Program-made: the position numbers and the translations under genes
Shown: piece by piece, positions 4,307 to 61,941 of the stretch
How the letters are laid out: the number at the start of each line of letters is the position of its first letter
Position numbering within the stretch: position 1 is the first letter of the stretch
Notes under the pieces: model-generated
What the model was told of the DNA's origin: nothing
What the model saw: the letters and a program-made list of their open reading frames with translations, nothing else
Database searches by the model: none
Assembly (NCBI GenBank): GCA_900544245.1
Contig: UQUH01000004.1
Coordinates: 1 to 63,812 of the forward strand
Direction: 5' to 3'
Source of the DNA: an uncultured Coriobacteriaceae bacterium
GTDB taxonomy: Bacteria; Actinomycetota; Coriobacteriia; Coriobacteriales; QAMH01
Length of the DNA stretch: 63,812 nt

Positions 4307-4499
4307 GATGGTTCCTTTCGCGGTGTCTAACTTATGAGCGCGATTATTGTAGACGAAGATTTTATGAGTGAGCCACGATGCAAAATCTTGCGCAAACATT
4401 GGAAGCGAAGGCATATTTCGACGGAATTACTCTAAGATAGTCGGGCGTCAGCCCACCCGGACAGGCGAAGGCGACGACCGACCAACAAGGAGAAATGCC

Positions 4500-17241: not shown

Positions 17242-17271
17242 TGAGACAGTTGCTCAGAGCAATTGTCTCAT
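17241..17271. repeat. ATGAGACA...TGTCTCAT hairpin element (family B)
   Basis: atgagacagttgctcagagcaattgtctcat, a near-perfect 31-bp palindrome. It abuts the regulator's TAA stop. Confidence 0.85.
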
Positions 17272-25391: not shown

Positions 25392-25420
25392 TGGGACAAA
25401 TGGACAGGTCATTTGTCCCA
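25392..25420. repeat. Hairpin TGGGACAAATGGACAGGTCATTTGTCCCA (variant of family B, same loop as 50677-50707 inverted)
   Basis: Read directly. It is followed at 25421-25471 by a family-C-like segment, gtttcgaccggag...ctcgctcgaaac. Confidence 0.6.
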
Positions 25421-27624: not shown

Positions 27625-27655
27625 ATGAGACAGCTGCTCTGAGCAACTGTCTCAT
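27625..27655. repeat. Family B hairpin element
   Basis: atgagacagctgctctgagcaactgtctcat, flanked by caaa / ttta (bidirectional terminator-like). Confidence 0.85.
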
Positions 27656-30641: not shown

Positions 30642-30954
30642 CTTGCTCCGTTTGTCATGGGCCAGTGGAAGCGCTCCCCCCAACTGACCTGGTTTTTGAC
30701 CCCACACTCGCATACAGAAACTTTTGCCTGATACTATCTCACTACTCATTTTCTCGCCCGGGCCACCGTATGTGACCTTAACGGACGGTACGTCTTACCC
30801 CTAAGATGCGCCATGCTCACGTCCAGGAGACCCTGTCCGCTTACGTGGATCCTTTCGACCGCATCTGCCTTGGACTAGAGCCGTTTTAGCGGCTCGCAAC
30901 CACAGACTTGGGAGGAGCGTTTCTAGTGTATCACGCAGCAGATAATCGCGTGCG

Positions 30955-43530: not shown

Positions 43531-43563
43531 ATGAGACACATTGGACAGGTACAGCTGTCTCAT
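43531..43563. repeat. Family B hairpin between convergent comF and nhaC; likely bidirectional terminator
   Basis: atgagacacattggacaggtacagctgtctcat, followed by tttt. It starts right after the comF stop and contains the nhaC stop (tca 43560-43562). Confidence 0.85.
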
Positions 43564-44867: not shown

Positions 44868-44970
44868 GCGAGCATGATAGACCAAATCGCGCTCGTCGGC
44901 AGCACGCCCATGTGGGCACTTGGTGGTATCATCTGCGCATGTGCATTTAGGCAAAGGCGGTGCAAACAGC

Positions 44971-46134: not shown

Positions 46135-46214
46135 GACAGTTGCTCAGGGACGTTGTCTCACTACCATACGAGCCCTGTTCATGATGAGACAACGTCCCTG
46201 AGCAACTGTCTCAT
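46131..46214. repeat. Head-to-head inverted pair of family B hairpin elements
   Basis: atgagacagttgctcagggacgttgtctcac (46131-46161) and its exact-type reverse complement atgagacaacgtccctgagcaactgtctcat (46184-46214), separated by 22 nt. The first copy contains the mtnA stop codon. Confidence 0.85.
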
Positions 46215-46332
46215 CGTTTGTCCCAGCTCACCGCTTACCCACGGACGTTGACGGGCACATCCTCCCCGGCTCGCATGTGGTAAAGTAGCGAGTTTGCAGG
46301 GAATCGAACGTAGACACGCAAAGGATGTTTTC

Positions 46333-46893
46333 GTGTTCGGAATAAGTGGCACGGAACTGGTGATTATCCTGTTCTTCGGTTTCCTCATCTTCGGGCCGGA
46401 GAAGCTGCCCCAGATGGGGCGCACCGTGGGACGGGCAATCAGGCAGTTCAGAAACGCCTCTGAGGCGGCGAACAAGAAGTTTAAGGAAGAGGTCGCCGAC
46501 CCCTTCCAGGAGGCCATCGCTCCCTACAAGGATCAGGTCGAGGAATCGACCAAGCCCATCCAAGAGGACATTTCCGCCATCAACGACACGCTCAACGAGA
46601 CGAAGAGCATGTTCACCGACCCGTTCAAGGACATGTTCGGTAGCCCAACGAGCACCCCCAAGGTCGCTCCCGGTGCAGCGATTCCCGGCGGGACCGCCAG
46701 CGAGCCCACTAGCCCCAGTCCCGTCCCGACAGCCGCCGATTCCGCGGCCGATGATCCCTTTGCCGGCGTTATCGATGATGCGCCCGCTAAAGAGCCCGAG
46801 GGCAAGCCCATCCCCGAGACGGGCGGTACCGTCAAGAAGAAGAGCATGGCGGCGAGCCTCTACGACCTCGACGACGAGAAAGCCGGTGAGTGA
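46333..46893 (+). CDS. tatA: Twin-arginine translocase TatA/TatB-family protein (long acidic/Pro-rich tail)
   Basis: I chose the GTG at 46333, preceded by aagga: VFGISGTELVIILFFGFLIFGPEKLPQMGRTVGRAIRQFR, which is the TatA/B hallmark (F-G-P-x-K-L-P). Confidence 0.82.
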   Translation: MFGISGTELVIILFFGFLIFGPEKLPQMGRTVGRAIRQFRNASEAANKKFKEEVADPFQEAIAPYKDQVEESTKPIQEDISAINDTLNETKSMFTDPFKDMFGSPTSTPKVAPGAAIPGGTASEPTSPSPVPTAADSAADDPFAGVIDDAPAKEPEGKPIPETGGTVKKKSMAASLYDLDDEKAGE

Positions 46894-46894
46894 G

Positions 46895-47656
46895 ATGCCC
46901 ATCGGTCCCGCGCGCATGCCGCTCATGGATCATATCGGCGAGCTGCGTCGTCGCATCGTCATCATCGTCGTCGCGCTCGCGGTCACGGTCTGCTTCATGT
47001 ACCTGCTCGCGCCGTATCTCATCGACTTCCTCATTCTCCCCGTGAGCGACTACGTGACCGATGTCTATGTGACAGGTGCGTTCGAGGGCTTCTCGCTGAA
47101 GTTCCGCGTGGCGCTCTTCATGTCGGTCCTCGTCTGCAGCCCCCTCATCTTCTGGGAGCTGCTCGCGTTCTTCCTGCCCGCGCTGCGCCCCAACGAGCGC
47201 CGCTACGTATTGCCCACGTTCTTCGTCGCCGTCGCGCTCTACGTGCTGGGCATGGTGTTCTGCTACTGCTTCTGCCTCAATCCCGCATTCCAATTCCTCA
47301 CGACCGAGAGCATGTCCATCGGCCAGATCCTGCCGCAGGCAACCGATTACCTGCACTACATCATCCTGTTCGAGCTTGCCTTTGGCCTGGCCTTCGAGCT
47401 ACCGCTCGTGGTCTTCTTCCTCATCCTGTTCAACATCGTCCCCTACAAGAAGATGCGCGCCAGCTGGCGAGGCATCTACGTCGGCCTGCTCGTGGTTGCC
47501 GCCATCGTGACACCGGATGCATCCCCCGTGACGATGGGCATCATGTTCGCCGCACTGCTCGCGCTCTACGAGGTGTCACTTGCTGCTGCCCGCATCGCGC
47601 TTGCGCGCAGAATCAAGCGCCAGCGTGCTGAGGAAGAAGCGGAGATGGCCGCGTAA
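46895..47656 (+). CDS. tatC: Twin-arginine translocase subunit TatC
   Basis: A 253-aa product from the ATG at 46895 (MPIGPARMPLMDHIGELRRRIV...). It has six TM segments and the TatC pattern. It starts 2 nt after the tatA stop. Confidence 0.9.
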   Translation: MPIGPARMPLMDHIGELRRRIVIIVVALAVTVCFMYLLAPYLIDFLILPVSDYVTDVYVTGAFEGFSLKFRVALFMSVLVCSPLIFWELLAFFLPALRPNERRYVLPTFFVAVALYVLGMVFCYCFCLNPAFQFLTTESMSIGQILPQATDYLHYIILFELAFGLAFELPLVVFFLILFNIVPYKKMRASWRGIYVGLLVVAAIVTPDASPVTMGIMFAALLALYEVSLAAARIALARRIKRQRAEEEAEMAA

Positions 47657-48027
47657 TGCACGAGCTATCGCTGGTACAGGGCATCTTCGATTCGGTCATT
47701 CCCGTCGCACGGCAAAACGGCGCCACGAAGATCACGGGCATCAAGCTCACCATCGGCGAGATGACGATGGTCGTACCCGAGGCAATGGAGTTCGCCTTCG
47801 AGGCGCTGTCCGAGGATGACCCGTTATTGGACGGCTGCGTGCTCGAGATGGATTTCGTGGCTCCGAAGTCACGTTGCCTGGACTGCGGTAACGAGTTCGA
47901 ACATGACCGTTTTCACAGTCATTGCCCCGCATGCGATTCGGCAGCGACCGTCCTGATTGCGGGACGTGAGCTCGATATCGCCTCCATGGAAATCGAAACA
48001 CCCGATGACGAGGACAGCCCCGCGTAG
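47656..48027 (+). CDS. hypA: Hydrogenase/Ni-enzyme maturation metallochaperone HypA
   Basis: 123-aa ORF starting MHELSLVQGI with the zinc site CLDCG...CPAC. Its ATG overlaps the tatC TAA (TAATG). Confidence 0.9.
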   Translation: MHELSLVQGIFDSVIPVARQNGATKITGIKLTIGEMTMVVPEAMEFAFEALSEDDPLLDGCVLEMDFVAPKSRCLDCGNEFEHDRFHSHCPACDSAATVLIAGRELDIASMEIETPDDEDSPA

Positions 48028-48084
48028 GGCTCGACATACGATGTGCATGGGCCAGATCCTAGCACATCGAGAGAGAAGGATGAC

Positions 48085-48741
48085 ATGGCTTACATCGACC
48101 TGGAAACCAAGATCCTGAACAAGAACGACGAAGGCGCCGCGGCAAACCGCGCCCTGCTCGACGAGAAGGGCGTCTACATGGTCAACGTGCTGGCGAGCCC
48201 CGGGTCGGGCAAGACCTCGACCATCGTGGCGACCATCAACGCGCTGCGCGACAAGTACAACATCGCCGTCATCGAGGGCGACATCGCGAGCGACGTCGAT
48301 TCGCAGACCATCAAGGCCCTGGGTATTCCCGCGGTGCAGATCAACACTGCCGGTGCCTGTCATCTCGAGAGCGACATGCTGCGTCGCGCCCTTGACGTGC
48401 TCGACTTGGACGACATCGACCTCATCTTCATCGAAAACGTGGGGAACCTCGTATGCCCGGCGGACTTCTACCTGGGCGAGAACATCAAGATGATGATCCT
48501 GTCGGTGCCCGAAGGCGATGACAAGCCACTCAAGTACCCCGGCATGTTCCAGGTGGCCGACGCCATCATCCTCAACAAAATCGACGTAATGCCGGCCTTT
48601 ACCTTTGACAAAACGCTCTTCGACGAGCATATCGAGCGCCTCAACCCCGGCGCGCCGAGCTTTGCCATCGCCGCGACCAAGGGCGACGGCGTCGACGAGT
48701 GGGCCAGTTGGCTCTCCGAGCAAATCGAAGCCGCAAAGTAG
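48085..48741 (+). CDS. hypB: Ni-enzyme maturation GTPase HypB
   Basis: A 218-aa product from the ATG at 48085, with VLASPGSGKTS (P-loop), CHLE, ENVGNLVCP and NKID (G4) motifs. Confidence 0.9.
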   Translation: MAYIDLETKILNKNDEGAAANRALLDEKGVYMVNVLASPGSGKTSTIVATINALRDKYNIAVIEGDIASDVDSQTIKALGIPAVQINTAGACHLESDMLRRALDVLDLDDIDLIFIENVGNLVCPADFYLGENIKMMILSVPEGDDKPLKYPGMFQVADAIILNKIDVMPAFTFDKTLFDEHIERLNPGAPSFAIAATKGDGVDEWASWLSEQIEAAK

Positions 48742-48760
48742 AATCGACGAGCTTCGTGCG

Positions 48761-48905
48761 CGTTTTTTTCGATTATGTGAGATGGGACCGAGGCTTCTCT
48801 TCACACAATCGCATTTTTTCTGCTACGGGACTTCACAGGTCTCACATAATCGAAAATTTCTTACATGCGAAGGATGGCGGTCTCGCACTATCGCAATTTC
48901 TTTGC
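48761..48905. repeat. Second array of the ~40-bp-period TTTCGATTATGTGAGAT-type repeats (one forward, three inverted)
   Basis: tttttttcgattatgtgagatggg, then inverted ctcttcacacaatcgcattttttc, gtctcacataatcgaaaatttc and gtctcgcactatcgcaatttc. Located between convergent hypB and ahcY. Confidence 0.75.
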
Positions 48906-48924
48906 GCGCCAGCGGGCTCGTGTT

Positions 48925-50184
48925 CTACACGGTGCCGAGCGTCCAGGAGTTGAGGTAGGCCTCCTGCTCGGGCGTGAGCGTGTCAATCTGTATGCCGAGC
49001 GTGCCGAGCTTAACGCGGGCGATCTCGTCGTCAATCTCGGCCGGGATGTTGTAGCACTGGGGCAGCAGCTCGTCGCGGTGCTTGAGCACGTACTCGGCCG
49101 CGAGCACCTGGTTCGCGAAGCTCATGTCCATGACCTCGGCGGGATGTCCCTCGGCAGCCGAGAGGTTCACGAGGCGTCCGTCGGCGAGCAGGATAATCGT
49201 GCGCCCATCGGGCAGCGTGTACTCGTCGACGAGCGGCTTGAGGGTCTCCTTGGAGACCGCGTGCTCCTCGAGCCAGGGAATGTTGATCTCGCTGTTGAAG
49301 TGGCCGGAGTTGCAGATGATCGCCCCGTCCTTCATGTTCTCGAACGCCGGCGCGTCGATGACGTTGAGGTCGCCGGTCACGGTTACCCAAACGTCGGCTA
49401 ACTTGGCGGCCTCGGCGCACGGCATCACGCGGTAGCCCTCCATGTGCGCCTCGAGCGCCTTGAGCGGATCGACCTCGCAGACGATGACGCTCATGCCCAT
49501 GCCAGCTGCGCGCTGGGCCAGGCCGCGTCCGCAGAAACCGTAGCCGCTCACCACGAGGGTGCGGCCCGCGAGCAGGCGATTGGTCGCGCGCACGATGCCG
49601 TCGAGCGTGGATTGGCCCGTGCCGTAGCGGTTGTCGAAGAAGTGCTTGGTGTTGGCGTCGTTGACATTGAACGAGGGGTACTTGAGCGCGCCGGCAGCCG
49701 ACATCGCAGCCAGGCGAATGACGCCGGTCGTCGTCTCCTCGGTGCCGCCAATCACGTACTTGAGGGCGTCCTGGCGATCGCCGTGGATGCGATCGCAGAG
49801 GTCAGCACCGTCATCCATCGTGATTTGCGGCTTGGTATCGATGACGGCGTCGAGGTGCTTGTAGTAGGTCTCGGTGTCCTCACCACAGCGTGCGTAGACC
49901 TCTGCGCCGTAGTACTTGACGAGCGCGGCCGCCGTGTCGTCCTGGGTGGAGAGCGGATTGCTTGCGCACAACGCGACCTGGGCACCGCCTTCGATCATCG
50001 TGCGTACGAGATTGGCGGTCTCGGTGGTCACGTGCAGACACGCACCGACGCGAATTCCCTCGAAGGGGCGCTCCTTGGCAAAGCGCTCGCGAATCTCGGC
50101 GAGTACGGGCATATCCCGGTCGGCCCACAGGATGCGCGCGCGGCCCTCGTCGGCAAGGTTGATGTCGGTGATGTCGTAGCTCAT
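48925..50184 (-). CDS. ahcY: Adenosylhomocysteinase
   Basis: A 419-aa product from the ATG at 50182-50184 ([28 protein letters not shown]), with the NAD motif [10 protein letters not shown]. Confidence 0.92.
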
Positions 50185-50232: not shown

Positions 50233-50263
50233 ATGAGACAACTACTCGAAGACGCTGTTTCAT
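50233..50263. repeat. Degenerate family B hairpin element
   Basis: atgagacaactactcgaagacgctgtttcat (the right arm has one mismatch). A further half-site, attgtctcat, ends at 50314. Confidence 0.55.
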
Positions 50264-50316
50264 TGCGTAGTGGCACCTGCGGAAAGCGAGGCAAAAACGA
50301 CAAGATTGTCTCATTA

Positions 50317-50332
50317 GTTAGGGTATGCTAAC
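50317..50332. promoter_or_regulatory. GTTAG-N6-CTAAC inverted repeat; candidate DtxR-family operator in front of the Cys-rich peptide gene
   Basis: gttagggtatgctaac, 9 nt upstream of the ATG at 50341. The same half-sites and spacing occur three more times in the feoAB leader regions. Confidence 0.45.
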
Positions 50333-50340
50333 ATTCGGAT

Positions 50341-50601
50341 ATGAACATCGCGAGCTGGATCATACTCATCATCGTCGTCATCTGGATTGGCGTTGCCATC
50401 AAGGTGGCCTTCTTCGGCGGCTTTGGCAAGAAGGGGCGCTCGTGCCACAGCACGCATCACGATGCGAACCTGCCAAGCGACGAGGACCTCAAGCTGCCGA
50501 GTGCTTGCATGGGTTGCAGCAAGGGAAGCTGCGCGGGCTGTGCAAGCGCGTCCGGCAGACGTGACATCCCCATACCCACCGTTCGCAAATCGCGAGGATA
50601 G
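50341..50601 (+). CDS. FeoB-associated Cys-rich membrane protein
   Basis: 86-aa ORF with one N-terminal TM helix (WIILIIVVIWIGVAIKVAFF) followed by CMGCSKGSCAGC. This organisation is typical of the FeoB-associated Cys-rich family, and it sits in an iron locus. Confidence 0.65.
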   Translation: MNIASWIILIIVVIWIGVAIKVAFFGGFGKKGRSCHSTHHDANLPSDEDLKLPSACMGCSKGSCAGCASASGRRDIPIPTVRKSRG

Positions 50602-50676
50602 ATGTGGGGCAGGAACGTTATGCTGCGTCCCCGATGTTCCCGTCTTTGCCTCATTACTGAACGGTGCCTTTCGTTA

Positions 50677-50707
50677 ATGAAACAAATGACCTGTCCATTT
50701 GTCTCAT
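50677..50707. repeat. Family B-variant hairpin
   Basis: atgaaacaaatgacctgtccatttgtctcat. Its loop is the reverse complement of the 25392-25420 copy. Confidence 0.65.
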
Positions 50708-50826
50708 GTCTCACGCACGGTTTCGTCATCTGCATTATCCATAAATTCAGATAAAGGACACATAACGTTTATCAATCCGTAGTATAATGCGCTCATCATC
50801 ATTCCCCAAAGCGAGCGGAGCTACGC

Positions 50827-51246
50827 GTGGCAATCGGCGATCTTACCCCCTCATACGAGGACTACATCGAGGCCATCTACGACCTCGCCCTACATGGCGA
50901 TGGGTCGGTGCGCTCCACCGACGTTGCGGATGCGCTCGGCTTTTCGAAGGCGAGCGTCGCTCGCGCGACCAAGAACCTTCGCGAGATGGGCTACATCGAA
51001 CAGGAGCGCTACGGGGAAATCACGCTTACGCCTGCAGGCAAGGAATACGGCGAGCACATCCTCATGCGCCATCGCGTGCTGCGCGCCTTTCTCATCGACG
51101 CCCTCGGTGTGAACGAGGAAGCGGCCAATCGCGAGGCGTGCATGATGGAACACGCCATCAGCGAGGACACGATGGATAAGTGGATCGCCTGGTACGAGGA
51201 AAATTACGGCCCCGTCTCCGAGACGCCCGCAAGCACAAGAATGTAG
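50827..51246 (+). CDS. DtxR/MntR-family metal-dependent transcriptional repressor
   Basis: 139-aa ORF (GTG start): YEDYIEAIYDL...STDVADALGFSKASVARATKNLREMGYI (wHTH) and HRVLRAFL...EACMMEHAIS (metal-site region). Confidence 0.85.
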   Translation: MAIGDLTPSYEDYIEAIYDLALHGDGSVRSTDVADALGFSKASVARATKNLREMGYIEQERYGEITLTPAGKEYGEHILMRHRVLRAFLIDALGVNEEAANREACMMEHAISEDTMDKWIAWYEENYGPVSETPASTRM

Positions 51247-54082: not shown

Positions 54083-54113
54083 TTGATTCCGAATGAGACA
54101 GATGCTCTGAGCA
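54083..54113. repeat. Family B hairpin element in the feoA-feoB intergenic spacer
   Basis: atgagacagatgctctgagcaactgtctcat. Confidence 0.85.
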
Positions 54114-54114
54114 A

Positions 54115-54132
54115 CTGTCTCATTTGTTAGCT
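54115..54132. promoter_or_regulatory. Perfect 18-bp palindrome TGTTAGCTATAGCTAACA (GTTAG-N6-CTAAC); candidate metalloregulator operator upstream of feoB
   Basis: Read directly. It lies 59-76 nt upstream of the feoB start codon on the - strand. Confidence 0.5.
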
Positions 54133-54200
54133 ATAGCTAACAGCAGTGTAAAAAGATGGACTGGCATAAGGGGTAGCCAGCCCATCGTCTTACCGAGTGG

Positions 54201-54425
54201 TTAGACCGCCTGGACCTCGATCTTGTCGAGATCGGACTTGCGTAGCGACAGGTGATAGCCACGCACGGTCAGGTCGACGGGATCTCCCAACGGGGCGACC
54301 TTATCCACCCTGATTTGCGCGCCCTTGGTAATGCCCATGTCCATGATGCGACGACGGGTCGCGCCCTCGTCGCGGAGCTTTACCACCGTGCACGTCGCAC
54401 CCGGTTTGATATCGGAAAGTGTCAT
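54201..54425 (-). CDS. feoA: Ferrous iron transport protein FeoA
   Basis: A 74-aa product from the ATG at 54423-54425 (MTLSDIKPGATCTVVKL...MDMGITKGAQIRV), an SH3-like FeoA pattern. Confidence 0.88.
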   Translation of the reverse strand: MTLSDIKPGATCTVVKLRDEGATRRRIMDMGITKGAQIRVDKVAPLGDPVDLTVRGYHLSLRKSDLDKIEVQAV

Positions 54426-54435
54426 GATAGCCTCC

Positions 54436-54475
54436 GTAGTTAGCATTCGTTAACTACATATTAGACAACGCTAAC
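54436..54475. promoter_or_regulatory. Two adjacent GTTAG-N6-(C/T)TAAC sites upstream of feoA; candidate metalloregulator operators
   Basis: gtagttagcattcgttaactac (54436-54457, a 22-bp imperfect palindrome) and attagacaacgctaac (54460-54475). Confidence 0.45.
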
Positions 54476-54537
54476 TTATTGTCAATGCACATTTTGCAAT
54501 TATTTTGCGATTGGCAAGAGCGGTGCGACCGGGACAA

Positions 54538-54570
54538 CCAGACAAAAGTGTCCCGGCGAGTTTTGTCTGG
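54538..54570. repeat. CCAGACA hairpin element (second copy)
   Basis: ccagacaaaagtgtcccggcgagttttgtctgg, immediately 3' of the carrier-protein gene. Confidence 0.75.
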
Positions 54571-54574
54571 TGCC

Positions 54575-54820
54575 CTACTCCTCCTCGGCGAGGCGCAGCA
54601 CCATCTCGTAGATGCCCTGGGCGCTGTTGAAGTTGGCCGGGACGACCTCCTTGGCGGGAACCGCGATGTCGAACTCGTCGTCGATTGCGTTGATGATCGC
54701 GAGGATATCGAAGGAGTCGAGGAAGCGCTCGTCGACCAGCGCCGTGCAGTTCTCGTAGTCGACGTCCTCCTCGACGTCCTTGAGCAGATCGATGATGGCC
54801 TCGAGCGTGATGTCGTCCAT
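54575..54820 (-). CDS. Carrier protein (DltC/ACP-like, phosphopantetheine-binding)
   Basis: An 81-aa acidic product from the ATG at 54818-54820 (MDDITLEAIIDLLKDVEE...ERFLDSFDILAIINAIDDEF). The DS(F/L)D serine motif sits at the start of helix 2. The longer ORF-track start lies inside a hairpin repeat. Confidence 0.75.
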   Translation of the reverse strand: MDDITLEAIIDLLKDVEEDVDYENCTALVDERFLDSFDILAIINAIDDEFDIAVPAKEVVPANFNSAQGIYEMVLRLAEEE

Positions 54821-54845
54821 GACGTACGTTCCTTTCATCTTGTGA

Positions 54846-54878
54846 ATGAGACGGTTTAGTCTGACCAATTTGTCTCAT
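54846..54878. repeat. Family B hairpin element (divergent loop)
   Basis: atgagacggtttagtctgaccaatttgtctcat. Confidence 0.75.
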
Positions 54879-54900
54879 TGCTCACCGGACCCTACGGGTG

Positions 54901-54931
54901 ATGAGACAGTTGCTCAGAGCGAGCGTCTCAT
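54901..54931. repeat. Family B hairpin element containing the decarboxylase stop codon
   Basis: atgagacagttgctcagagcgagcgtctcat. The tca at 54928-54930 is the TGA stop of the upstream - strand gene. Confidence 0.85.
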
Positions 54932-56112
54932 TTGCGTGGCGTGTTGAGCGTGCTCGTCTCGATGAAGTCGCGGGCGAGCTCGCATCCACCATCATAACGC
55001 AAGACCACGCGAGGCATCGTGCGGCTCAGGAACAGGTGCACGCCCTCGGTGACGGAGTACGCGCCGGCATTGGCGAAGGCAAGCACGTCGTCGAGCTCGA
55101 GACTCTCGAGGCTGACCTCGCGCACAAGCACGTCGTTGACCGTGCACAGGCTGCCGCACAGCGTCCAGGAACGCTCATCGCGCTCGCGCATGGCATCGGC
55201 CAGCGCAGAGAGGTTGGCGGTCACGGGCACCTTGAGACCCATCACCTGCCCCGCGTAGGTGAGGTGGTTGATGCCACCGTCAAGGATGCAGTAGTTCGTG
55301 CCCTCGTTCTCCTTGATGTCGACCACGCGGGTGAGATAGGTGCCGCAGGACGCCGCGAAGAAACGCCCCATCTCGATGGTGACCTCCACGTCCTTTGCTA
55401 GCTCACGGATGGCGGGCGCGAGTTCGCGAGCCGGGGAAAGGTCATCGGAGAAGTCCTCGTCGGCGAAGTAGGGCACGGCGAGGCCGGGGCCGTATTCGAG
55501 GCGCTGCACCTTGAAGCTGTGCTCGTCGCGCAGCTCACCGATAAGCGCATGCAGCTTCTCGATCTCGCGGATCTGGTGCTTGAGCTTCTTGCGCTGGGTT
55601 CCCACGAAGTAGTGGAGCCCCACGATTTCGAGGTGCGGGAAGTCCGTGCGTTTGTCGATAACCTCCAGTAAATCGGCTTTCGACATGCCGAACTGACTGC
55701 CGGAGTTCAGTCGCAAGAGCACCTTGACCGTGGTGGATGCCTGCGTCGCGCATTCCTCGATGAGTTTCACGTGCAATTTCGATTCGGCAGTGAGCACGCC
55801 GACGCGGTAGCGGATGGCGCGACTCACGTCTTCGGCCTGCTTGTTCACGCCCGAGTACACGATCTGCGGTGCGGAGATGCCCACGTCCTCGCAGATGGCG
55901 AGCTCGCCGGGGCTACACACCTCGAGGCGGATTCCATGATCCGCCGCGGCTCCCGCGAGGAAGGGGTTGGCCTTCATCGCGAAGCAGAGACGCACCTCGT
56001 CGTCGAATATATCGGCGACCTTATCCAGCCGGCGCCAGAACTCCTCGACGTCGAAGACGAAGGTCGGCGTGCCATACTCCTGCGCGATGGTGAGAAGTTC
56101 GCTGTTATCCAT
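54928..56112 (-). CDS. PLP-dependent decarboxylase, Orn/DAP/Arg decarboxylase family (fold type III), non-canonical
   Basis: A 394-aa product from the ATG at 56110-56112 (MDNSELLTIAQEYGTPTFVFD...). It has the PLP-lysine motif FAMKAN and a C-terminal GSLCTVND motif. The usual GGG loop reads YGPGLAV, and EPGR reads EMGR. Confidence 0.8.
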   Translation of the reverse strand: MDNSELLTIAQEYGTPTFVFDVEEFWRRLDKVADIFDDEVRLCFAMKANPFLAGAAADHGIRLEVCSPGELAICEDVGISAPQIVYSGVNKQAEDVSRAIRYRVGVLTAESKLHVKLIEECATQASTTVKVLLRLNSGSQFGMSKADLLEVIDKRTDFPHLEIVGLHYFVGTQRKKLKHQIREIEKLHALIGELRDEHSFKVQRLEYGPGLAVPYFADEDFSDDLSPARELAPAIRELAKDVEVTIEMGRFFAASCGTYLTRVVDIKENEGTNYCILDGGINHLTYAGQVMGLKVPVTANLSALADAMRERDERSWTLCGSLCTVNDVLVREVSLESLELDDVLAFANAGAYSVTEGVHLFLSRTMPRVVLRYDGGCELARDFIETSTLNTPRK

Positions 56113-56144
56113 ATCAGATCCTTCGTTTATGGGACAAGGGGACA

Positions 56145-56218
56145 GTGAGACACATTGGACAGGTACATCTGTCTCATCGGGGACCATGAGACAGATGTAC
56201 CTGTCCAATGTGTCTCAC
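56145..56218. repeat. Head-to-head inverted pair of family B hairpin elements (cattggacagg subtype)
   Basis: gtgagacacattggacaggtacatctgtctcat (56145-56177) and atgagacagatgtacctgtccaatgtgtctcac (56186-56218) are reverse complements of each other, 8 nt apart. Confidence 0.85.
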
Positions 56219-56219
56219 T

Positions 56220-57722
56220 TCATTTTAGCTCCAGCAGCGCCTGGCGGTCGATCTTGCCGTTCTTGGTGAGGGGCATCGTGTCCAGCTGGCGAATCTTGTT
56301 GGGCACCATATACTGCGGCAGGACGTCCTTGAGCGTAGCCGCAAGGGAGTCCTTCTCGCATGCGCCCACGTAGAACAGGAGGATGCGCTTTTTCCGCGGC
56401 TCGTAGACCGTGCACGCGCGCTCCACACCGTCGGTGGCATGCGCCGCCGCATCGATTTCGCCGAGCTCGATGCGCTGGCCCAGATGCTTGATCTGGTGAT
56501 CCTTGCGCCCGCGGTACACGAAGCGCCCGACCTTGTCGAGCATGCCGATATCGCCCGTGCGATACATCGTCTCGGGAAATGCCGGCGTAAGCGGGTTTTG
56601 CACGAAGGCCTCGGCCGTCTTCTCCGGGTCGTTGTAGTAGCCGAGTGCCAGGCAGGTGCCGACGACGCAGATCTCGCCCTCGACGTCGGGCTCGTCGATT
56701 AGCCGGTCCTCCTCGTCGAGTAAGAAGACGCGCTCGTTGGGGAAGGGCCTGCCCATGGGGATGACCTCGTCCTTCTCGTAATCGCGCACGATGATGTGGT
56801 ACGTGCAGTTGCAGGTCACCTCGGTGGGGCCATACACGTTCACGAACATGGCGTCGGGCAGCGCGGCGCGCCAGACGGCGAGCTGCTTGGGCGGCATGAC
56901 CTCGCCGCTGAAGATGACCATGCGAATCGTCGTGGGCACACGGTAATCGAAACCACCCATCATCGAGACGAAGCACATGGCGCTCACGGCCCAAGTGCAG
57001 ACGGTGACCTCGCGTTCGACGAGGAAGTCCATGAGGTTCACGGGGATGCTGAAGTACTCGCGCGGGATCATCTGCACGGTCGCGCCGGTGGCAAGGGCAC
57101 TGTAGATGTCCTTGACCGAGACATCGAAGTCGAACGGCGCCTGGTTGGCCAGCACGTCGTCTTTCGTTATGTCGAATATCGAGACGAAGGAGCCGATGAA
57201 ATCGATCACGGAGCGATGGCACACGGCCACGCCCTTGGGAGTGCCCGTGGAGCCGGAGGTGAAATTGACGTACAGCGGGTCGAGGTCGAGCGATGCGGCG
57301 CGGCGGCTGGCGAGCAGCGCGCTATCGGTGCGCGTGTCGATGATGTCCTCGAGGCAGACGACGATGTGGCCCTCGAAGGCGCTGCGTGCGGCGTCGATGT
57401 TACGCGCATCGGCGATCACGAGCGGGGCGGCGAGCTTGTCGACGATGGCGCGGGCACGGGTTGCGGGCTGGCGCACGTCGATGATCGAGTAGCAGCAGCG
57501 CGCGTAGACTGCGCCGAACATGGCGGCGAGCGCGAGCGTGCTCTTCTCCATGTAGCAGGCGATGGGGCTGAGCTCGTCGACGTGCGCGGCAAGGTAGGAC
57601 CCGACGGCGCGGGCGCGGCGCATGAGGTCGAGGAAGCTGACCTCTCCGTTCTCGTCCGCGAACGCGATCTTATCCGGCAGCTCGCAGGCCCTCGCCTCGA
57701 GCCACTCGAGTACGTTAGTCAT
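56220..57722 (-). CDS. Stand-alone amino-acid adenylation enzyme (DltA-like, ANL superfamily)
   Basis: 500-aa ORF with the A-domain core motifs FTSGSTGTPKGV (A3), NVYGPTEVT (A5), YRTGD (A7), GRKDHQIKHLGQRIELGEI (A8) and PLTKNGKIDR (A10). No fused carrier or condensation domain. Confidence 0.85.
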   Translation of the reverse strand: MTNVLEWLEARACELPDKIAFADENGEVSFLDLMRRARAVGSYLAAHVDELSPIACYMEKSTLALAAMFGAVYARCCYSIIDVRQPATRARAIVDKLAAPLVIADARNIDAARSAFEGHIVVCLEDIIDTRTDSALLASRRAASLDLDPLYVNFTSGSTGTPKGVAVCHRSVIDFIGSFVSIFDITKDDVLANQAPFDFDVSVKDIYSALATGATVQMIPREYFSIPVNLMDFLVEREVTVCTWAVSAMCFVSMMGGFDYRVPTTIRMVIFSGEVMPPKQLAVWRAALPDAMFVNVYGPTEVTCNCTYHIIVRDYEKDEVIPMGRPFPNERVFLLDEEDRLIDEPDVEGEICVVGTCLALGYYNDPEKTAEAFVQNPLTPAFPETMYRTGDIGMLDKVGRFVYRGRKDHQIKHLGQRIELGEIDAAAHATDGVERACTVYEPRKKRILLFYVGACEKDSLAATLKDVLPQYMVPNKIRQLDTMPLTKNGKIDRQALLELK

Positions 57723-57746
57723 ACCAACCTTCTTCTGACCTGCAAA

Positions 57747-57777
57747 ATGAGACAGCGAGACTGACGGCTTGTCTCAT
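57747..57777. repeat. Family B hairpin element (gagactga loop subtype)
   Basis: atgagacagcgagactgacggcttgtctcat, flanked by caaa and tttttt. Confidence 0.85.
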
Positions 57778-57799
57778 TTTTTGATGGTACCGGCACATA

Positions 57800-57830
57800 A
57801 TGAGACAACGAGACTGAGCGCTTGTCTCAT
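57800..57830. repeat. Family B hairpin element (same subtype, direct orientation) containing the stop of the NhaC-like gene
   Basis: atgagacaacgagactgagcgcttgtctcat. The tca at 57827-57829 is the TGA stop. Confidence 0.85.
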
Positions 57831-59518: not shown

Positions 59519-61036
59519 ATGTTCGAACAAGACCACATCTGGGTTGGACAGGGCGAAGTCCCCTGCAACCTACTTCTCAACCAGGCAAACCGTCATGGCC
59601 TCATCGCCGGCGCATCCGGCACGGGCAAGACCGTCACCCTCAAGGTGCTCGCCGAAGGCTTCTCGAAAGCCGGCGTGCCCGTCTTCATGGCCGATGTGAA
59701 GGGCGATGTGACCGGTATTGCGCAAGCAGGCGACGATACCGAGAACATCACCAAGCGTGTCGAGAAGTTCGGCATTGAGGACTGGCAGCTCGAGGGTTGC
59801 CCCACGCGCCTATGAGACATGCTTGATGACCAGGGCATTCCCGTGCGTATCACGATCTCGGACATGGGGCCCATCATGCTCTCGCGCCTACTCGAGCTCA
59901 CTGAAGTGCAGGAAGGTGTGCTCAACATCGTCTTTCGCATTGCCGATGACCAGCAAATGCTGCTCATCGACCTCAAGGACCTGCGTGCGATGCTCAACTA
60001 CGTCTCGGAGCACTCCAAGGAGATCGAGACTACGTACGGCAAGGTCTCGTCGCAGTCGGTTGGCGCGATCCTGCGCGCGCTCATTGCCATCGAGGACCAG
60101 GGTGGCGACACCTTCTTCGGCGAGCCCAACCTCGACCTCAACGACTGGTTCGCAACTGACAAGAACGGCCAGGGCTACGTCAACGTGCTCAATGCGGCGC
60201 GCCTCATCAATAGCCCGCAAATCTACGCGATGTTCCTGTTGTGGATGCTCAGCGAGCTGTTCGAGACGCTGCCCGAGGTGGGCGATGGTGACAAGCCCAA
60301 GTTCGTCTTCTTCTTCGACGAGGCACACCTGCTCTTCAATGGCATGCCCAAGGAGCTACTCGACAAGATCGTCCAGGTCGTGAAGCTCATCCGCTCGAAG
60401 GGCGTGGGCGTGTACTTTATCACGCAGTCACCGTCTGATATCCCCGACGAGGTACTCGCGCAACTCTCGAACCGCATCCAGCACGGACTGCGCGCCTACA
60501 CCCCAGCCGAGCAGAAAGCCGTGAAGGCCGCCGCGCAATCCTTCCGCGAGAACCCGGCGTTCAACGCGAAGGACAAGATTCTCGAGCTTGGCACGGGCGA
60601 AGCGCTCGTCTCGTTTCTGGATGAAGAAGGCAAGTCCTGCATCGTCGAGTACGCAAAGATATTGCCGCCGCAGTGCCGCATGGCTGCCGCCGACCCCGAA
60701 GTCATCGACCGGGTGCTTGCTGCACAGGAAGCGCTCATGAGCAAGTACGGCGAGGCGATCGACCGTGAATCGGCTTACGAGCTCATCAGCAAGCAGGCCG
60801 AAGCGCTCGACGAGGAAGCCAAGCAGGCTGCCGAGCAGGCGCAAGCCGACATCGAGGCTGCCGAGGCCGAGAAACGGAAGGCGAAGGAGGCCGAAAAGGC
60901 CGCCGCGGCCGAGGAGAAGCGCGCCCAGAAGGCGCAGCAAGAGGCCGTCAAGCAGGTGGGAAGCGTGCTCGGGCAGATTGGTCGCGAGGCGTCGCGTCAG
61001 ATCATCCGCGGCATCTTTGGCGCGCTCAAGAAGTGA
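59519..61036 (+). pseudogene. DUF853 / HerA-like P-loop ATPase (YjgR family) interrupted by one in-frame TGA at 59813-59815
   Basis: Two same-frame ORFs (59519-59815 and 59819-61036). The N-terminal part has the Walker A GASGTGKT. The C-terminal part has VFFFDEAHLLF (Walker B), RSKGVGVYFITQSPSDIP and a coiled-coil tail. The junction reads CPTRL*DMLDDQGIPVR. Confidence 0.75.
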
Positions 61037-61941
61037 GCGTGCGCCGACATCGCAAGAATGAGACAGATGCCCTGAGCAAATGTCTCATTTTGCTGCTCGT
61101 CGCAGCGCTCGCGCTGTTGCCGGGATGCTCGTCGGCGTTGTCATCGCTGCCAACGACGGGACTTCCCTCGGGCATCGAATACACCGATCTTGGCACCCCC
61201 GATTTTGGCGAGTTTGCCGGGCAAACCGAATCCTTCGAGGAGTACGCCCCGCTTGACGCGCTGGGGCGATGCGGTGCGGCGACCGCGTGCATCGGCCGCG
61301 ACCTCATGCCCACCAAGGAGCGGGGACAAATCAGCTCCATCAAGCCCACGGGCTGGCAGCGCGCTGAGTACGACTTCATCGACGGTGGCCTGCTCTACAA
61401 TCGCTGTCATCTCATCGCCTACAGCCTCACCGCCGAAGACCTCAACGAGCGCAACCTCATCACCGGCACGCGGCAGATGAACCTCGCGATGACCGAGTTC
61501 GAGAAGCTCGTGTGCGACTACGTGGAAGACACCGGCAATCACGTGCTATACCGGGTCACACCCGTATTCGAGGGCATCGAACTCGTCGCGCGGGGCGTGC
61601 AGATGGAGGCGTTGTCCGTGGAGGATGACGGCGAGGCTATCTGCTTCAACGTCTTCATCCCCAACGAGCAAGACGGCATTGGCATCGATTATCTAACAGG
61701 GTATAGCTGGCTAGCTGGAGAGAGCGATGGCACGAGCTCGAAGAACGGCGAAGGTGCTGCCGGGAAAAATGGCGACGAGACCACATGCGTCTACGTGCTC
61801 AACACGAGCAGCAAGCGCTTCCACCTCCCCACCTGCGATTCCGTCCCCACCATCAGCGCGAAGAACAAGGCCGAAAGCGACAAGTCCCGTGACGAGTTGA
61901 TAGCCGAGGGCTACAAGCCCTGCGGCAGCTGCAGACCGTAG
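61033..61941 (+). CDS. Secreted DNA/RNA non-specific endonuclease (EndA/DNA-entry-nuclease type) lipoprotein with C-terminal Cys4 (Ada-like) domain
   Basis: 302-aa ORF (GTG start overlapping the upstream stop; the true start is uncertain). It has the lipobox LLPGCSS, the nuclease core YNRCHLIAYSL...NLITGTRQMN, and the C-terminal HLPTCDSV...CGSC. Confidence 0.78.
   Translation: MSVRRHRKNETDALSKCLILLLVAALALLPGCSSALSSLPTTGLPSGIEYTDLGTPDFGEFAGQTESFEEYAPLDALGRCGAATACIGRDLMPTKERGQISSIKPTGWQRAEYDFIDGGLLYNRCHLIAYSLTAEDLNERNLITGTRQMNLAMTEFEKLVCDYVEDTGNHVLYRVTPVFEGIELVARGVQMEALSVEDDGEAICFNVFIPNEQDGIGIDYLTGYSWLAGESDGTSSKNGEGAAGKNGDETTCVYVLNTSSKRFHLPTCDSVPTISAKNKAESDKSRDELIAEGYKPCGSCRP
61058..61088. repeat. 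Family B hairpin element inside the annotated N-terminus of the nuclease gene
   Basis: atgagacagatgccctgagcaaatgtctcat, translated as NETDALSKCLI in the ORF-track frame. Confidence 0.85.

Follow-up and report, generated by a model that had tools for sequence, protein, structure and literature searches.

Short hairpin repeats with a cognate transposase are described from Proteobacteria as REP/REPIN-RAYT systems, among them the REP/BIME elements of E. coli with TnpA-REP and the REPINs of Pseudomonas, and a 5' GTAG tag is the defining feature of classical REPs. Rickettsia palindromic elements (RPEs) are 100-150 bp long, and we know of no dedicated enzyme for them. TIRYT genes are RAYT-like and lie between inverted repeats that carry a GGGGWSAS motif; some of these repeats, which are self-complementary and dimer-forming, have founded moderately abundant repeat families, and REPs inside genes are also on record (Di Nocera, De Gregorio and Rocco 2013, PMC3733652). 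TIRYT/TIRtron units are proposed to be TnpA-Y1 subclass 2.1, whose genes had no REP-like sequences nearby, and high-G+C Actinobacteridae contained subclass 1.1 only (Quentin et al. 2018, PMC6006769).

The whole stretch of DNA analysed here, 63,812 nt (the window), carries a dense family of hairpins that, judged by sequence comparison, are very likely REP/REPIN-type repeats whose cognate enzyme would be a Y1 (HUH) tyrosine transposase of the RAYT/TIRYT class, encoded once at a fixed chromosomal site. Like the proteobacterial systems, the family consists of locally dense hairpins of about 31-35 nt, almost all of them outside genes near gene ends and arranged as singlets and inverted doublets, with a single-copy Y1 HUH enzyme at a fixed chromosomal place between inverted copies, vertical inheritance and lineage-specific repeat populations. 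Among solved structures, the enzyme family profile matches E. coli TnpA-REP best (4ER8, E 1e-3), followed by ISDra2 TnpA (E 0.04). Unlike those systems, it lacks a 5' GTAG (or CGTC) tag, and what is conserved is an 8-bp foot, ATGAGACA/TGTCTCAT; the enzyme is longer (247-256 aa) and ends in an HTH-like tail, the family is hosted by Coriobacteriia and Clostridia, and NCBIfam REP_Tyr_transpos scores of 61-76 bits fall under the curated cutoff of 80.

Among these systems the TIR/TIRYT class is the closest candidate assignment, as it shares the longer RAYT-like enzyme with a C-terminal HTH-type extension. Sequences comparable to the GGGGWSAS-like motif are the GGGACAG / GGGGACAG cores in loci L116, L092 and L110 and GGGGACGA/GGGGACGT in L191, whereas the motif of the Collinsella-like lineage is GAGACA at the foot, not GGGG, and the local density is far above "moderately abundant". 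Membership in TnpA-Y1 subclass 2.1 is likewise a candidate assignment, the repeats adjoining the enzyme here, unlike in Quentin et al. With IS200/IS605 elements and their miniature derivatives (PATEs) the family shares the Y1_Tnp catalytic fold and, by analogy, may share the logic of subterminal hairpins recognised on single-stranded DNA; here, however, the enzyme is encoded once, at a syntenic locus, and not in multiple copies, lacks a TnpB partner and matches IS200 models weakly (22-24 bits, cutoff 55), and the repeats are only 31-35 nt long and gene-free. As with RPEs and intragenic REPs, genes tolerate in-frame copies, which lengthen the protein by a short peptide (rlmKL, comF, the nuclease signal region), a doublet in strain L202 adding exactly 12 codons; intragenic copies are nevertheless a minority here (3/18).

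The hairpin family and its placement in the window

The window contains ten exact ATGAGACA-N13-19-TGTCTCAT matches against 0.00 expected from 100 shuffles, and the ATGAGACA 8-mer occurs 29 times against 1.9 expected, which confirms a true family. With at most one mismatch per arm, 17 ATGAGACA-N15/17-TGTCTCAT copies were found, and one variant raises the total to 18 (Table 1). The preliminary description had put the number at about 18, which stands, and had counted nine copies from feoB to the NhaC-like gene, where there are seven; its first focal copy, placed at 54083, starts at 54093, and the 8-bp termini it called invariant have one mismatch in each of seven copies (46131, 50233, 50677, 54846, 54901, 56145 and 56186). 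Two further candidates were rejected: a lone ATGAGACA at 59812, apparently an in-frame TGA within a HerA-like gene, and a loose match at 51064 with three terminal mismatches within a candidate ORF, which looks like chance.

Table 1. Positions of the hairpin copies and of comF in the window.
Feature	Position	Strand	Remarks
Copy, palindromic core GTTGCTCAGAGCAAT	17241-17271	.	RNA fold -19.2 kcal/mol, z -4.8; 1-base overlap with TAA stop of HTH-cupin regulator gene (16690-17241); 26 nt before AMP-binding enzyme gene
Variant copy TGGGACAAATGGACAGGTCATTTGTCCCA, foot TGGGACA/TGTCCCA, core AATGGACAGGTCATT	25392-25420	+	Between TauE-like gene and ilvB
Copy, core GCTGCTCTGAGCAAC, A-run and T-run flanks	27625-27655	.	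Between two minus-strand genes
Intragenic copy in rlmKL	31571-31601	+	In-frame reading D-E-T-T-S-L-S-S-C-L-I; flanking bases lengthen hairpin to 23-nt arms
comF, ComFC-like, double zinc ribbon and PRTase	42520-43530	+	RAYT-class transposase directly 3' in relatives
33-nt intragenic copy in comF	42944-42976	+	In-frame reading D-E-T-H-W-T-G-T-S-V-S
Solo copy between convergent comF and NhaC-like gene	43531-43563	+	NhaC stop codon within terminal TCA of copy
REPIN-like inverted doublet, 46131-46161 and 46184-46214	46131-46214	.	TGA of first foot is mtnA stop codon
Degenerate copy upstream of ahcY	50233-50263	.	Fold not better than shuffles; lone TGTCTCAT foot 3' at 50307-50314
Degenerate copy, ATGAAACA foot, core AAATGACCTGTCCATT	50677-50707	-	
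Copy between feoA and feoB	54093-54123	.	Adjoins DtxR/IdeR-like palindrome
33-nt copy, carrier-protein gene/decarboxylase gene junction	54846-54878	.	Missing in sister species L139 (38-bp indel)
Copy ending in decarboxylase stop codon	54901-54931	.	Terminal TCA is the stop codon; kept at orthologous place in L139
Inverted doublet, 56145-56177 and 56186-56218, core CATTGGACAGGTACATC	56145-56218	.	Decarboxylase/adenylase junction
Copy, core GCGAGACTGACGGCT	57747-57777	.	24 nt upstream of adenylase start
Copy, core ACGAGACTGAGCGCT	57800-57830	.	Terminal TCA is stop codon of second NhaC-like gene
Copy in 5' end of nuclease lipoprotein gene as called	61058-61088	.	Reading N-E-T-D-A-L-S-K-C-L-I; just before LLPGC lipobox; 21 nt after HerA-like gene; identical in L152

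Fifteen of the 18 copies are intergenic, while intergenic DNA makes up 8.5% of the window (P about 6e-14). The remaining three, already noticed as lying within coding regions, are in frame in rlmKL, comF and the lipoprotein nuclease; the foot is open in two of the three reading frames, and in-frame copies therefore persist within these genes. Most copies are found just 3' of stop codons, and others lie upstream of starts within apparent operons (feoA-feoB and adenylase-decarboxylase-carrier). Four genes are terminated by a TGA within a foot. That every gene junction at 54-58 kb carries copies holds for most of them but is slightly overstated, because the feoA/carrier junction (54425-54575) has none.

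The inverted pairs were confirmed, with arms of 34 nt (56144-56177/56186-56219, spacer 8 nt; fold -66.3 kcal/mol, z -12.2) and 30 nt (46131-46160/46185-46214; fold -63 kcal/mol, z -12.5) that are 100% complementary in both, while the fold energies of single copies range from -13 to -26 kcal/mol (z about -3 to -6). Several copies (27625, 57747, 61058) have an A-run 5' and a T-run 3', and some may have an additional role as RNA 3'-end hairpins. The view that they are mere terminators was not supported: a consensus terminator scan returned 14 sites, no commoner than in shuffles (12.2), and flagged only parts of 43531 and 54901.

Turnover between genomes and the transposase of relatives

The repeats are specific to their lineage, overwhelmingly intergenic and polymorphic between close strains. 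About 64 of 116 genome hits are Coriobacteriia, often with several per genome. Conspecifics have 10-11 copies per 22 kb; the count drops to 2-5 in species whose FeoB is 94-95% identical, and to zero in about 170 kb from relatives that share the genes at 60-71% FeoB identity.

Strains 95-99.9% identical differ by gain, loss, doubling and swapping of copies, and the comparison of filled and empty sites gave differences of presence, of singlet versus doublet and of subtype. In sister species the sites corresponding to 42944, 54846, 57800, 56145/56186, 54093 and 46131 are empty or altered. The 42944 copy lies within a clean 42-bp block missing in sister species L139 and L140, with GCGGACG at either side of the block. 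This 7-bp direct repeat, which borders the single clean insertion, counts against a Y1 origin; to our knowledge, such repeats are not a product of Y1 transposases. The 57800 copy is missing in L136/L141 (56-bp indel), L139 and L152; L136/L141, which match in about 94-95% of aligned columns, have a GTTGCTC-type copy at the 57747 place. At the 56145/56186 junction L139 has a single copy with another core, at 54093 sister species have a longer inverted pair with a different core and an identical right-hand boundary, and at 46131 they have a doublet with a different core, or a singlet. Around ahcY, a hypB/ahcY element present in L038/L085 is missing in the window, L038 has similarly decayed sequence at the place orthologous to 50233, and related strains have at 50677 a 3.2-kb ABC-transporter block with another copy at its end.

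Differences of this kind also separate nearly identical strains, namely a singlet/doublet difference at 43531 against L186 (99.9% identical) and an inverted doublet at the rlmKL site of L202 (99.5% identical; +36 bp, RlmKL 745 vs 733 aa). A 66-bp deletion in L184 begins within the 42944 copy, and L195 has a 15-bp internal deletion in the 25392 copy. Several of these polymorphisms (doublet to singlet, the L184 and L195 deletions) are possible by slippage or recombination without a transposase. The NhaC-to-hypB segment, which has copies at both bounds, is inverted in some genomes.

Sister species and one 99.5%-identical strain carry a RAYT-class Y1 (HUH) transposase gene of 247-250 aa directly 3' of comF, bounded on either side by inverted hairpin copies, at exactly the point where the window strain has its solo copy. 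In L139, L140 and L142 the Y1_Tnp gene that separates comF from NhaC encodes 247 aa; the layout with flanking copies recurs in L176, L177/L178, L179/L180 (whose flanking type is that of the 25392 variant) and L187, and a Clostridia MAG has a like arrangement. Inverted copies surround the gene in seven independent loci. The search for a RAYT/IS200-type enzyme was thus positive in relatives, while tblastn and a six-frame family HMM found no Y1 gene in the window, and the comF locus lacks the transposase in the window and in 9/10 conspecific arrangements. The L116 gene (4463-5224) matches Pfam Y1_Tnp (2.6e-11), has REP_Tyr_transpos as top NCBIfam model (75.9 bits) and lies between inverted copies at 4289-4322 and 5242-5275. 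The HUH histidines and tyrosine are invariant in 26/26 family members; the C-terminal tail weakly resembles the HTH models HTH_23/HTH_38 (E about 0.1), and homologues carry precomputed HTH family annotations. No ATGAGACA-type copies surround the RAYT orthologue of a further Clostridia genome (P0115, L126).

The transposase alleles are 46-74% identical, and each is flanked by its own hairpin core, so that alleles and cores co-vary under a constant TGAGACA/TGTCTCA foot. The apparent mobility of the hairpins, proposed earlier as that of a REP- or MITE-like element, is supported by comparative evidence throughout, namely the enzyme in relatives and the empty sites.

Alternative explanations and proposed mechanism

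It is very unlikely that the repeats are MITEs that originated from, and owe their movement to, a DDE-type insertion sequence at another genomic site, with the Y1 gene merely a frequent neighbour or target. While doublets resemble two terminal inverted repeats with a short spacer and the 7-bp repeat at the comF insertion resembles a target-site duplication, that repeat can equally be the trace of a microhomology-mediated deletion in the copy-less lineage, and no consistent duplication was found at other filled/empty pairs. No DDE transposase with matching ends was found in the window or any fetched locus, and in every allele examined the Y1 gene is bounded on both sides, inverted, by the locally dominant subtype, which is the REP/RAYT and TIR/TIRYT signature.

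An ancient seeding, after which homologous recombination, gene conversion and replication errors caused by the hairpins were the only sources of spread and change, with the Y1 enzyme domesticated for another role, is very improbable. It would account for dense, well-preserved copies in transposase-free strains, for different subtypes at the same junctions in different lineages and for the inverted, copy-bounded segment, and slippage between repeated feet predicts copy-anchored deletions and doublet/singlet changes; however, it leaves unexplained the origin of new sites such as 42944 and 54846 and the core subtype that flanks and surrounds each enzyme allele.

We give similarly little credence to immobile operators that a dimeric DNA-binding protein, such as a global regulator or a nucleoid-associated protein, would bind in double-stranded form. 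The inverted ATGAGACA/TGTCTCAT half-sites, the intergenic placement and the HTH similarity of the transposase tail fit such sites, but a rigid dimer is awkward because half-site spacing varies (15, 17 and 19 nt), and in-frame intragenic copies, inverted doublets, site gain and loss between 99.5-99.9% identical strains and the zero copies beside the same genes in relatives with 60-71% FeoB identity argue against them. The transposase is the only candidate regulator found, and a dimeric-protein site is most simply absorbed if the protein is this enzyme with its HTH-like tail.

Intrinsic bidirectional terminators or RNA-stability hairpins evolved in place, with ends shared through selection for RNA function, are hardly credible: positions 3' of stops, the A- and T-runs, the single-copy folds and the place of 43531 between convergent genes speak for them, but the terminator scan, the copies upstream of starts in operons and in frame in three genes, the clean indels that separate close strains and the sharing of one 8-bp foot by Clostridia and Coriobacteriia, hard to reach by convergence, speak against, and the inverted copies around the transposase refute them as an origin.

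For REP/REPIN-type repeats with a RAYT/TIRYT-class enzyme, E. coli TnpA-REP and IS200/IS605 TnpA suggest that the transposase would recognise the folded foot on single-stranded DNA, cut adjacent to it and move or copy the element, the conserved foot being the recognition and cleavage part and the variable core the allele-specific part. In the window strain the population is probably no longer replenished from the comF locus, and present change would be mainly deletion, doublet-to-singlet collapse between repeated feet and recombination. A past burst fits better than ongoing activity, because local density is highest here although the comF-locus transposase is missing. While REP/REPIN-RAYT systems are a known kind, the family in these Collinsella-like gut Coriobacteriaceae would be a new member.

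Hairpin copies and their placement among genes

The preliminary description had reported a very dense family of short hairpin elements in the window, and this family proved to be real: the pattern ATGAGACA-N13-19-TGTCTCAT gave 10 exact matches, compared with 0.00 in 100 dinucleotide-preserving shuffles, and the 8-mer by itself was found 29 times, with 1.9 expected. When one mismatch was permitted in each arm the count rose to 17 copies, and a related variant hairpin brought the total to 18 in 63.8 kb (see the table). Several details of the description had to be corrected: the first focal copy starts at 54093 and not at 54083, the interval from feoB to the NhaC-like gene has seven copies rather than nine, and the termini, described as invariant, carry one terminal mismatch in seven copies. 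The window core subtypes are mixed, comprising GTTGCTCAGAGCAAC with an asymmetric relative, CATTGGACAGGTACATC, GCGAGACTGA... and an L179-type variant (L-numbers denote comparison loci), and the bases most commonly flanking the copies are A before ATGAGACA and T after TGTCTCAT. Predicted folding energies of single copies range from about -13 to -26 kcal/mol. The inverted pairs were also borne out, with 30-nt arms at 46131/46184 (-63 kcal/mol) and 34-nt arms at 56145/56186 (-66 kcal/mol), both perfectly complementary and both with z of about -12; inverted doublets occur elsewhere in L031, L034, L092, L110, L186, L187 and L202. The copies resemble the Tn5 mosaic end ...AAGAGACAG, which brought a sequencing-adapter artefact into consideration; this was dismissed, since many independently made assemblies have copies at orthologous positions.

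Feature coordinates (in the window unless a comparison locus is named) and allele-specific cores
Feature	Position	Sequence or remark
Hairpin copies, starts	17241, 27625, 31571, 42944, 43531, 46131, 46184, 50233, 50677, 54093, 54846, 54901, 56145, 56186, 57747, 57800, 61058	
Variant hairpin copy	25392	foot TGGGACA/TGTCCCA
mtnA stop codon	46132-46134	TGA inside foot
NhaC-like gene stop codons	43560-43562 and 57827-57829	TGA inside foot
Decarboxylase stop codon	54928-54930	TGA inside foot
Peptide of rlmKL copy		DETTSLSSCLI
Peptide of comF copy		DETHWTGTSVS
Peptide of copy in lipoprotein nuclease signal region		NETDALSKCLI
DtxR/IdeR-like palindrome before feoB	54127-54143	TTGTTAGCTATAGCTAACA
DtxR/IdeR-like palindrome before feoA	54438-54456	
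DtxR/IdeR-like palindrome before small Cys-rich ORF (50341-50601)	50316-50333	TTAGGGTATGCTAAC
DtxR-family repressor gene	50827-51246	
raiA RNA motif	30675-30916 (-)	Rfam RF03072
SBP_bac_3 gene	29640-30713; L193 4155-5228	
HerA-like helicase gene	59519-61036	in-frame TGA 59813-59815
Core flanking L139 allele		GTGCCNGGCAC
Core flanking L177 allele		AAAGTTCGTCCGACGAACTTT
Core flanking L179 allele		AATGGACAGGTCATT
Core flanking L187 allele		ATGCCGCCGGGCTGG
Core flanking L176 allele		ACGTCTCCGGGACGT
Core flanking L116 allele		TTGGGACAGTCC
Y1-comF adjacency (two phyla)	L116 2083-5913; L126-L135; L177, L179, L187	

On a gene map built from GC3-based ORF choice, Pfam and gene calls on conspecific contigs, 15 of the 18 copies are intergenic and thus fall in 8.5% of the window, coding sequence making up the other 91.5% (binomial P=6e-14). 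The majority of these intergenic copies separate genes that run in the same direction within what look like operons, feoA-feoB and adenylase-decarboxylase-carrier being examples. The claim that every gene junction of the 54-58 kb stretch carries a copy goes slightly too far, as the feoA/carrier junction has none. Copies reach into gene ends, with several stop codons formed inside a foot and those of the cupin regulator, comF and adenylase genes lying at most 1 nt from one. Three copies do lie within coding regions, as had been proposed (rlmKL, comF and a lipoprotein nuclease), all in frame and sharing one reading frame, xAT-GAG-ACA ... TGT-CTC-ATx. Such copies will mislead gene callers through stop codons, false extended ORFs and split comF calls, and they probably also confuse assembly and strain typing of Collinsella-like genomes.

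Other features of these junctions were recorded. The minus-strand set at 54575-57722, which lies beside an NhaC-type transporter, is a compact group of three genes for an AMP-binding adenylase, an Orn/DAP-type PLP decarboxylase and an 81-aa acidic carrier-like protein, the last giving no Pfam match. The set is found in L139 at about 79-84% identity, whereas the surroundings of feoB in L137, L140 and L142 do not contain it. DtxR/IdeR-like palindromes precede three genes, with a DtxR-family repressor gene nearby; the feoB and 50316 boxes are kept in sister species, and the adjacent hairpin copies vary. A lone ATGAGACA at 59812 was rejected as a half-element, since it appears to be an in-frame TGA inside the HerA-like gene. 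This TGA (PTRL*DMLDDQG) divides the gene into 98-aa and 405-aa ORFs, identically in all conspecific contigs; the split gene could be a fixed pseudogene, and its homologues presumably carry Trp at the TGA position. At Rfam gathering thresholds the sole match in the window was the raiA RNA, with none at the repeats; this motif is full-length (153.9 bits, gathering 101.3) and lies upstream of the SBP_bac_3 gene, overlapping the 5' end of the longest ORF there.

A Y1 transposase gene between inverted copies in relatives

The search for a RAYT/TnpA enzyme succeeded in relatives and found none in the 63.8-kb window, where neither tblastn nor the family HMM over six-frame ORFs detected a Y1 gene. Two window ORFs, 46228-46926 (-), opposite tatA, and 26397-27458 (-), were rejected as hidden enzymes, having no Pfam match, with the family HMM negative across the window. 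In the clostridial locus L116, two inverted copies 920 bp apart bracket a 253-aa ORF matching Pfam Y1_Tnp (2.6e-11), whose best NCBIfam match is REP-associated tyrosine transposase (75.9 bits, cutoff 80), and in L092, an Olsenella MAG, the N-terminus of a Y1 gene lies beside a copy. Alignment of the sister species L139, L140 and L142 places about 850-910 extra bp precisely at window position 43531; this DNA encodes a 247-aa protein (MSRFRKESVGDIYHVMSRGNGG...GNHFHLLV...YIHKNPEKGGL; Y1_Tnp 4e-12; REP_Tyr_transpos 61 bits) with hairpin copies on both sides. A protein search returned 1950 homologues of this enzyme, those named coming from Eggerthellaceae, Coriobacteriaceae, Atopobiaceae and Adlercreutzia, one of them labelled RayT by JGI; the same kind of search with the 54-aa RAYT fragment from L092 returned no candidates. 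The order topA(-) comF(+) Y1(+) is kept in four more alleles (L176, L177/L178, L179/L180 and L187), each with a hairpin directly upstream of Y1 and an inverted hairpin directly downstream, and in 2 of the four the enzyme's own stop codon lies within the foot.

The HUH histidines and the catalytic tyrosine are invariant in a 26-sequence alignment. The corresponding profile matched E. coli TnpA-REP (4ER8) at E 1e-3 versus 0.04 for ISDra2 TnpA; a single-sequence PDB search with the enzyme gave no relevant match. Among NCBIfam models, REP_Tyr_transpos scored best at 61-76 bits, below its cutoff of 80, and IS200 reached only 22-24 bits. At 247-256 aa the enzyme is longer than the chain of E. coli TnpA-REP (165 aa), and it has a conserved C-terminal block, ...G(F/L)S.R.IE.LTG(I/V)GR; Pfam HTH matches at the C-terminus are weak (E ~0.1), and some Clostridia homologues have precomputed HTH_8/HTH_7/HTH_11 matches.

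Alleles at the comF locus share 46-74% mutual identity and are about 30% identical to the Clostridia alleles, and each is flanked by its own core. The foot TGAGACA/TGTCTCA is constant across alleles, L179 having TGGGACA/TGTCCCA, and the gene-flanking subtype is among the commonest local subtypes around each enzyme gene. The L139 and L187 core subtypes are absent among the window copies. A foot universal to the enzyme clade was rejected, as the clostridial orthologue P0115 in L126 has no ATGAGACA-type copies around it and only a different GTAGTGGGGACACTAC hairpin after recD2; this hairpin, at about 2790-2810, holds both GTAG and the GGGGACAC (GGGGWSAS) motif.

Immediately after comF the window has a single copy (43531-43563), beyond which lies the convergent NhaC-like gene, and the same enzyme-free layout is found in nine of ten distinct arrangements sharing an identical MtnA protein. 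The tenth, L187, has a 250-aa enzyme adjoining comF and, from NhaC to hypB, matches the window at 99.5% identity. The exact L187 enzyme sequence is present on 209 contigs, compared with 480 for the exact MtnA, and enzyme-positive strains therefore appear common.

Turnover of copies and spread among genomes

Empty-site comparison revealed presence/absence differences both between species and between close strains, and this comparative evidence of insertions and deletions suggests that the repeats may be mobile. Between species, a 42-bp block holding the comF copy is cleanly missing in L139 and L140, copy 54846 is missing in L139, and copy 57800 in L139 and L152; a single copy with a different core stands at the position of the 56145/56186 doublet, and the feoA/feoB and mtnA/tatA junctions have different-core copies with the outer boundary unchanged. 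Among near-identical strains, an inverted doublet in L186 (99.9% identical) corresponds to singlets in the window and L181, and L202 (99.5% identical) has a doublet inside rlmKL that adds 36 bp (745 vs 733 aa). L136 and L141 are without copy 57800 and have another subtype at 57747, L184 has a 66-bp deletion beginning in the comF copy, and L195 has a 15-bp deletion within the 25392 variant. In L038 and L085, a copy at the hypB/ahcY junction supplies the hypB stop codon, the window having unrelated sequence there. A second, unrelated repeat also lies at this junction (48741-48925); it comprises GCGCGTTTTTTTCGATT-like units and a perfect inverted repeat of 17 bp, TTTTCGATTATGTGAGA ... TCTCACATAATCGAAAA, and strains differ in whether they have a 41-bp unit. 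L038 has a further repeat, GACATTCGC...TTTTGC, near 50.7 kb.

Larger segments vary at the copies as well. A 3.2-kb block present in L136, L141 and L085, and not in the window, is bounded by a copy and, from its translated sequence, looks like an ABC transporter (binding protein, permease, ATPase). The block junction in the window (50601-50726) contains the degenerate copy 50677, the block end in the other three loci is a hairpin copy, and L187 has SBP_bac_11 and TOBE genes in the apparently corresponding region. The NhaC-mtnA-tatA-tatC-hypA-hypB segment (43560-48741) is reversed in L187 and L179/L180 relative to the window, whose orientation is shared by L139 and L177; its ends are hairpin-bearing junctions, which suggests repeated inversion between inverted copies. 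One feature fits the overall picture less well: the comF copy is bordered by a 7-bp direct repeat that is not reproduced at other filled/empty pairs and may reflect a microhomology deletion in the copy-lacking lineage. In the enzyme-free strain, slippage between repeated feet, together with recombination, probably accounts for changes in the copies. Spread by recombination only would account for the doublet/singlet changes but leaves the new sites unexplained.

The family extends well beyond the species. A scan for exact termini in one genome per species found at least 116 loci, against roughly 0.001 chance matches per 2-Mb genome by our estimate. About 64 of the matches listed are Coriobacteriia (Olsenella, Tractidigestivibacter, Collinsella, Enorma, Eggerthellaceae and many MAGs), a single genome often contributing several, and AAGGGACAGTCCCTT is the commonest core among the Atopobiaceae listed. 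Low-G+C Clostridia and Lachnospiraceae have the identical foot with GGGACAG-type cores, as singlets and inverted doublets. Graded relatives came from scanning metagenome contigs with FeoB as the anchor: conspecifics (99% FeoB identity) have 10-11 copies per 22 kb; species at 94-95% have 2-5 copies, mostly with the different core GAGACAG-CGTGCCNGGCACG-CTGTCTC; and relatives at 60-71% have zero copies across about 170 kb, also when the foot pattern is relaxed. In Microbacterium and an Actinomycetota MAG (L011, L014, L032, L109, L115), the ATGAGACA...TGTCTCAT termini lie within a longer hairpin, GC-ATGAGACA-YCAC...GTGG-TGTCTCAT-GC in Microbacterium, with further complementary flanks, and no Y1 gene was seen in these 8-kb loci; these hairpins could be a separate family with the same foot, or unrelated. 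A full-text literature search for both 8-mers returned unrelated eukaryotic primer and sequence matches only, and one for REP/RAYT in Coriobacteriia found no paper on the hairpin family.

Classification and biological meaning

The main interpretation of the preliminary description, a mobilised REP- or MITE-like element, is supported by the Y1 gene flanked by inverted copies in relatives and by the polymorphic sites. The anatomy of the family matches the REP/REPIN-RAYT paradigm: a short palindromic repeat in many, predominantly extragenic copies, inverted doublets that fold as one long hairpin, and, in relatives (L116, L139/140/142, L176, L177/178, L179/180, L187) but not in the window, a Y1 gene with inverted flanking copies. 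Classical REPs are defined in part by a GTAG/CGTC tag. In contrast, no window copy has GTAG or CGTC at the foot, next to the stem. Because this tag is absent and the enzyme falls just under the NCBI RAYT cutoff, we filed the family as REP/RAYT-like and not as classical GTAG REP.

Among published variants, the nearest are the TIR/TIRYT units that Di Nocera et al. (2013) described, in which RAYT-like enzymes have flanking inverted repeats with a GGGGWSAS motif (PMC3733652). Some of these repeats are self-complementary, form dimers and found repeat families, and REPs within genes were also reported (PMC3733652). In our comparison, L191 has 44-bp inverted repeats with GGGGACGA/GGGGACGT, and the cores are TTGGGACAG in L116 and GGGGACAG in L092/L110, whereas Collinsella-like alleles have GAGACAG/GGGACAA feet in place of GGGGWSAS. 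Quentin et al. (2018) treated TIRYTs as equivalent to TnpA-Y1 subclass 2.1, with a C-terminal HTH extension, found no REP-like sequences near subclass 2.1 genes, and assigned high-G+C Actinobacteridae the IS-type subclass 1.1 only (PMC6006769). It is probable that the family works like REP/RAYT, as a member of a TIRYT-type branch. By analogy with E. coli TnpA-REP and IS200/IS605, the enzyme would recognise the folded foot on single-stranded DNA and cut next to it, and the element would then be copied or moved.

Each of the other explanations covers some of the observations. A binding site (operator) for a dimeric regulator, the second possibility raised in the preliminary description, leaves unexplained the inverted flanking of the Y1 gene in seven loci and the allele-matched cores. 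The same two observations stand against terminators evolved in place, and the copies differ from intrinsic terminators in lacking a G+C-rich stem with a U-run, the feet being A+T-rich and the T-tails mostly of at most 3 T. The bidirectional intrinsic terminators considered earlier likewise found no support in a consensus scan of the window, which passed only fragments of two copies and gave a site total no higher than in shuffles. A DDE-type MITE fails on the flanked Y1 loci and matched cores too, and no parent IS or fixed-length target-site duplication was seen.

The position of the enzyme gene raises a further question. In Collinsella-like Coriobacteriaceae, Y1 lies directly 3' of comF in every allele examined, the Clostridia clade (enzyme about 30% identical) has the order recD2-Y1-comF, with overlap of the comF start in L126, and in-frame hairpin copies occur within comF in L177, L179, L180, L187 and the window. 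The Adlercreutzia and Atopobiaceae MAG homologues that were looked up are not beside comF, and the Olsenella fragment adjoins ilvD on the one side visible. Recurrent comF adjacency in two phyla is therefore intriguing, not universal. On this gene-order evidence, we regard it as improbable that enzyme and hairpins are functionally tied to the single-stranded DNA machinery of natural transformation, beyond a domesticated transposon. If they were, the foot would signal processing or recognition of single-stranded DNA, either incoming or of the lagging strand, and the within-species mix of divergent alleles, matched cores and enzyme-free strains would represent specificity switching.

To our knowledge, almost all detailed work on REPIN-RAYT systems has been done in Proteobacteria. 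The present family would follow the same principle in gut Coriobacteriaceae and gut/rumen Clostridia, with another recognition foot and an extra C-terminal enzyme tail, and the host lineage looks like an abundant human-gut one. The class that the enzyme appears most to resemble is the one for which the earlier survey reported no nearby repeats (PMC6006769). Further points of value are that members of one species have or lack the enzyme, that its alleles at a single locus diverge strongly, and that copies donate stop codons and lie in frame inside genes. The system amounts to a natural experiment: strains 99.5% identical in the adjoining segment differ in whether they have the enzyme, alleles of a single locus share only about 50% identity and each comes with a hairpin core of its own, and copies end genes, occur in frame and lie at deletions, at an inversion and at an indel the size of an operon. 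This variation among strains, alleles and copies makes the birth, upkeep and loss of repeat populations directly testable.
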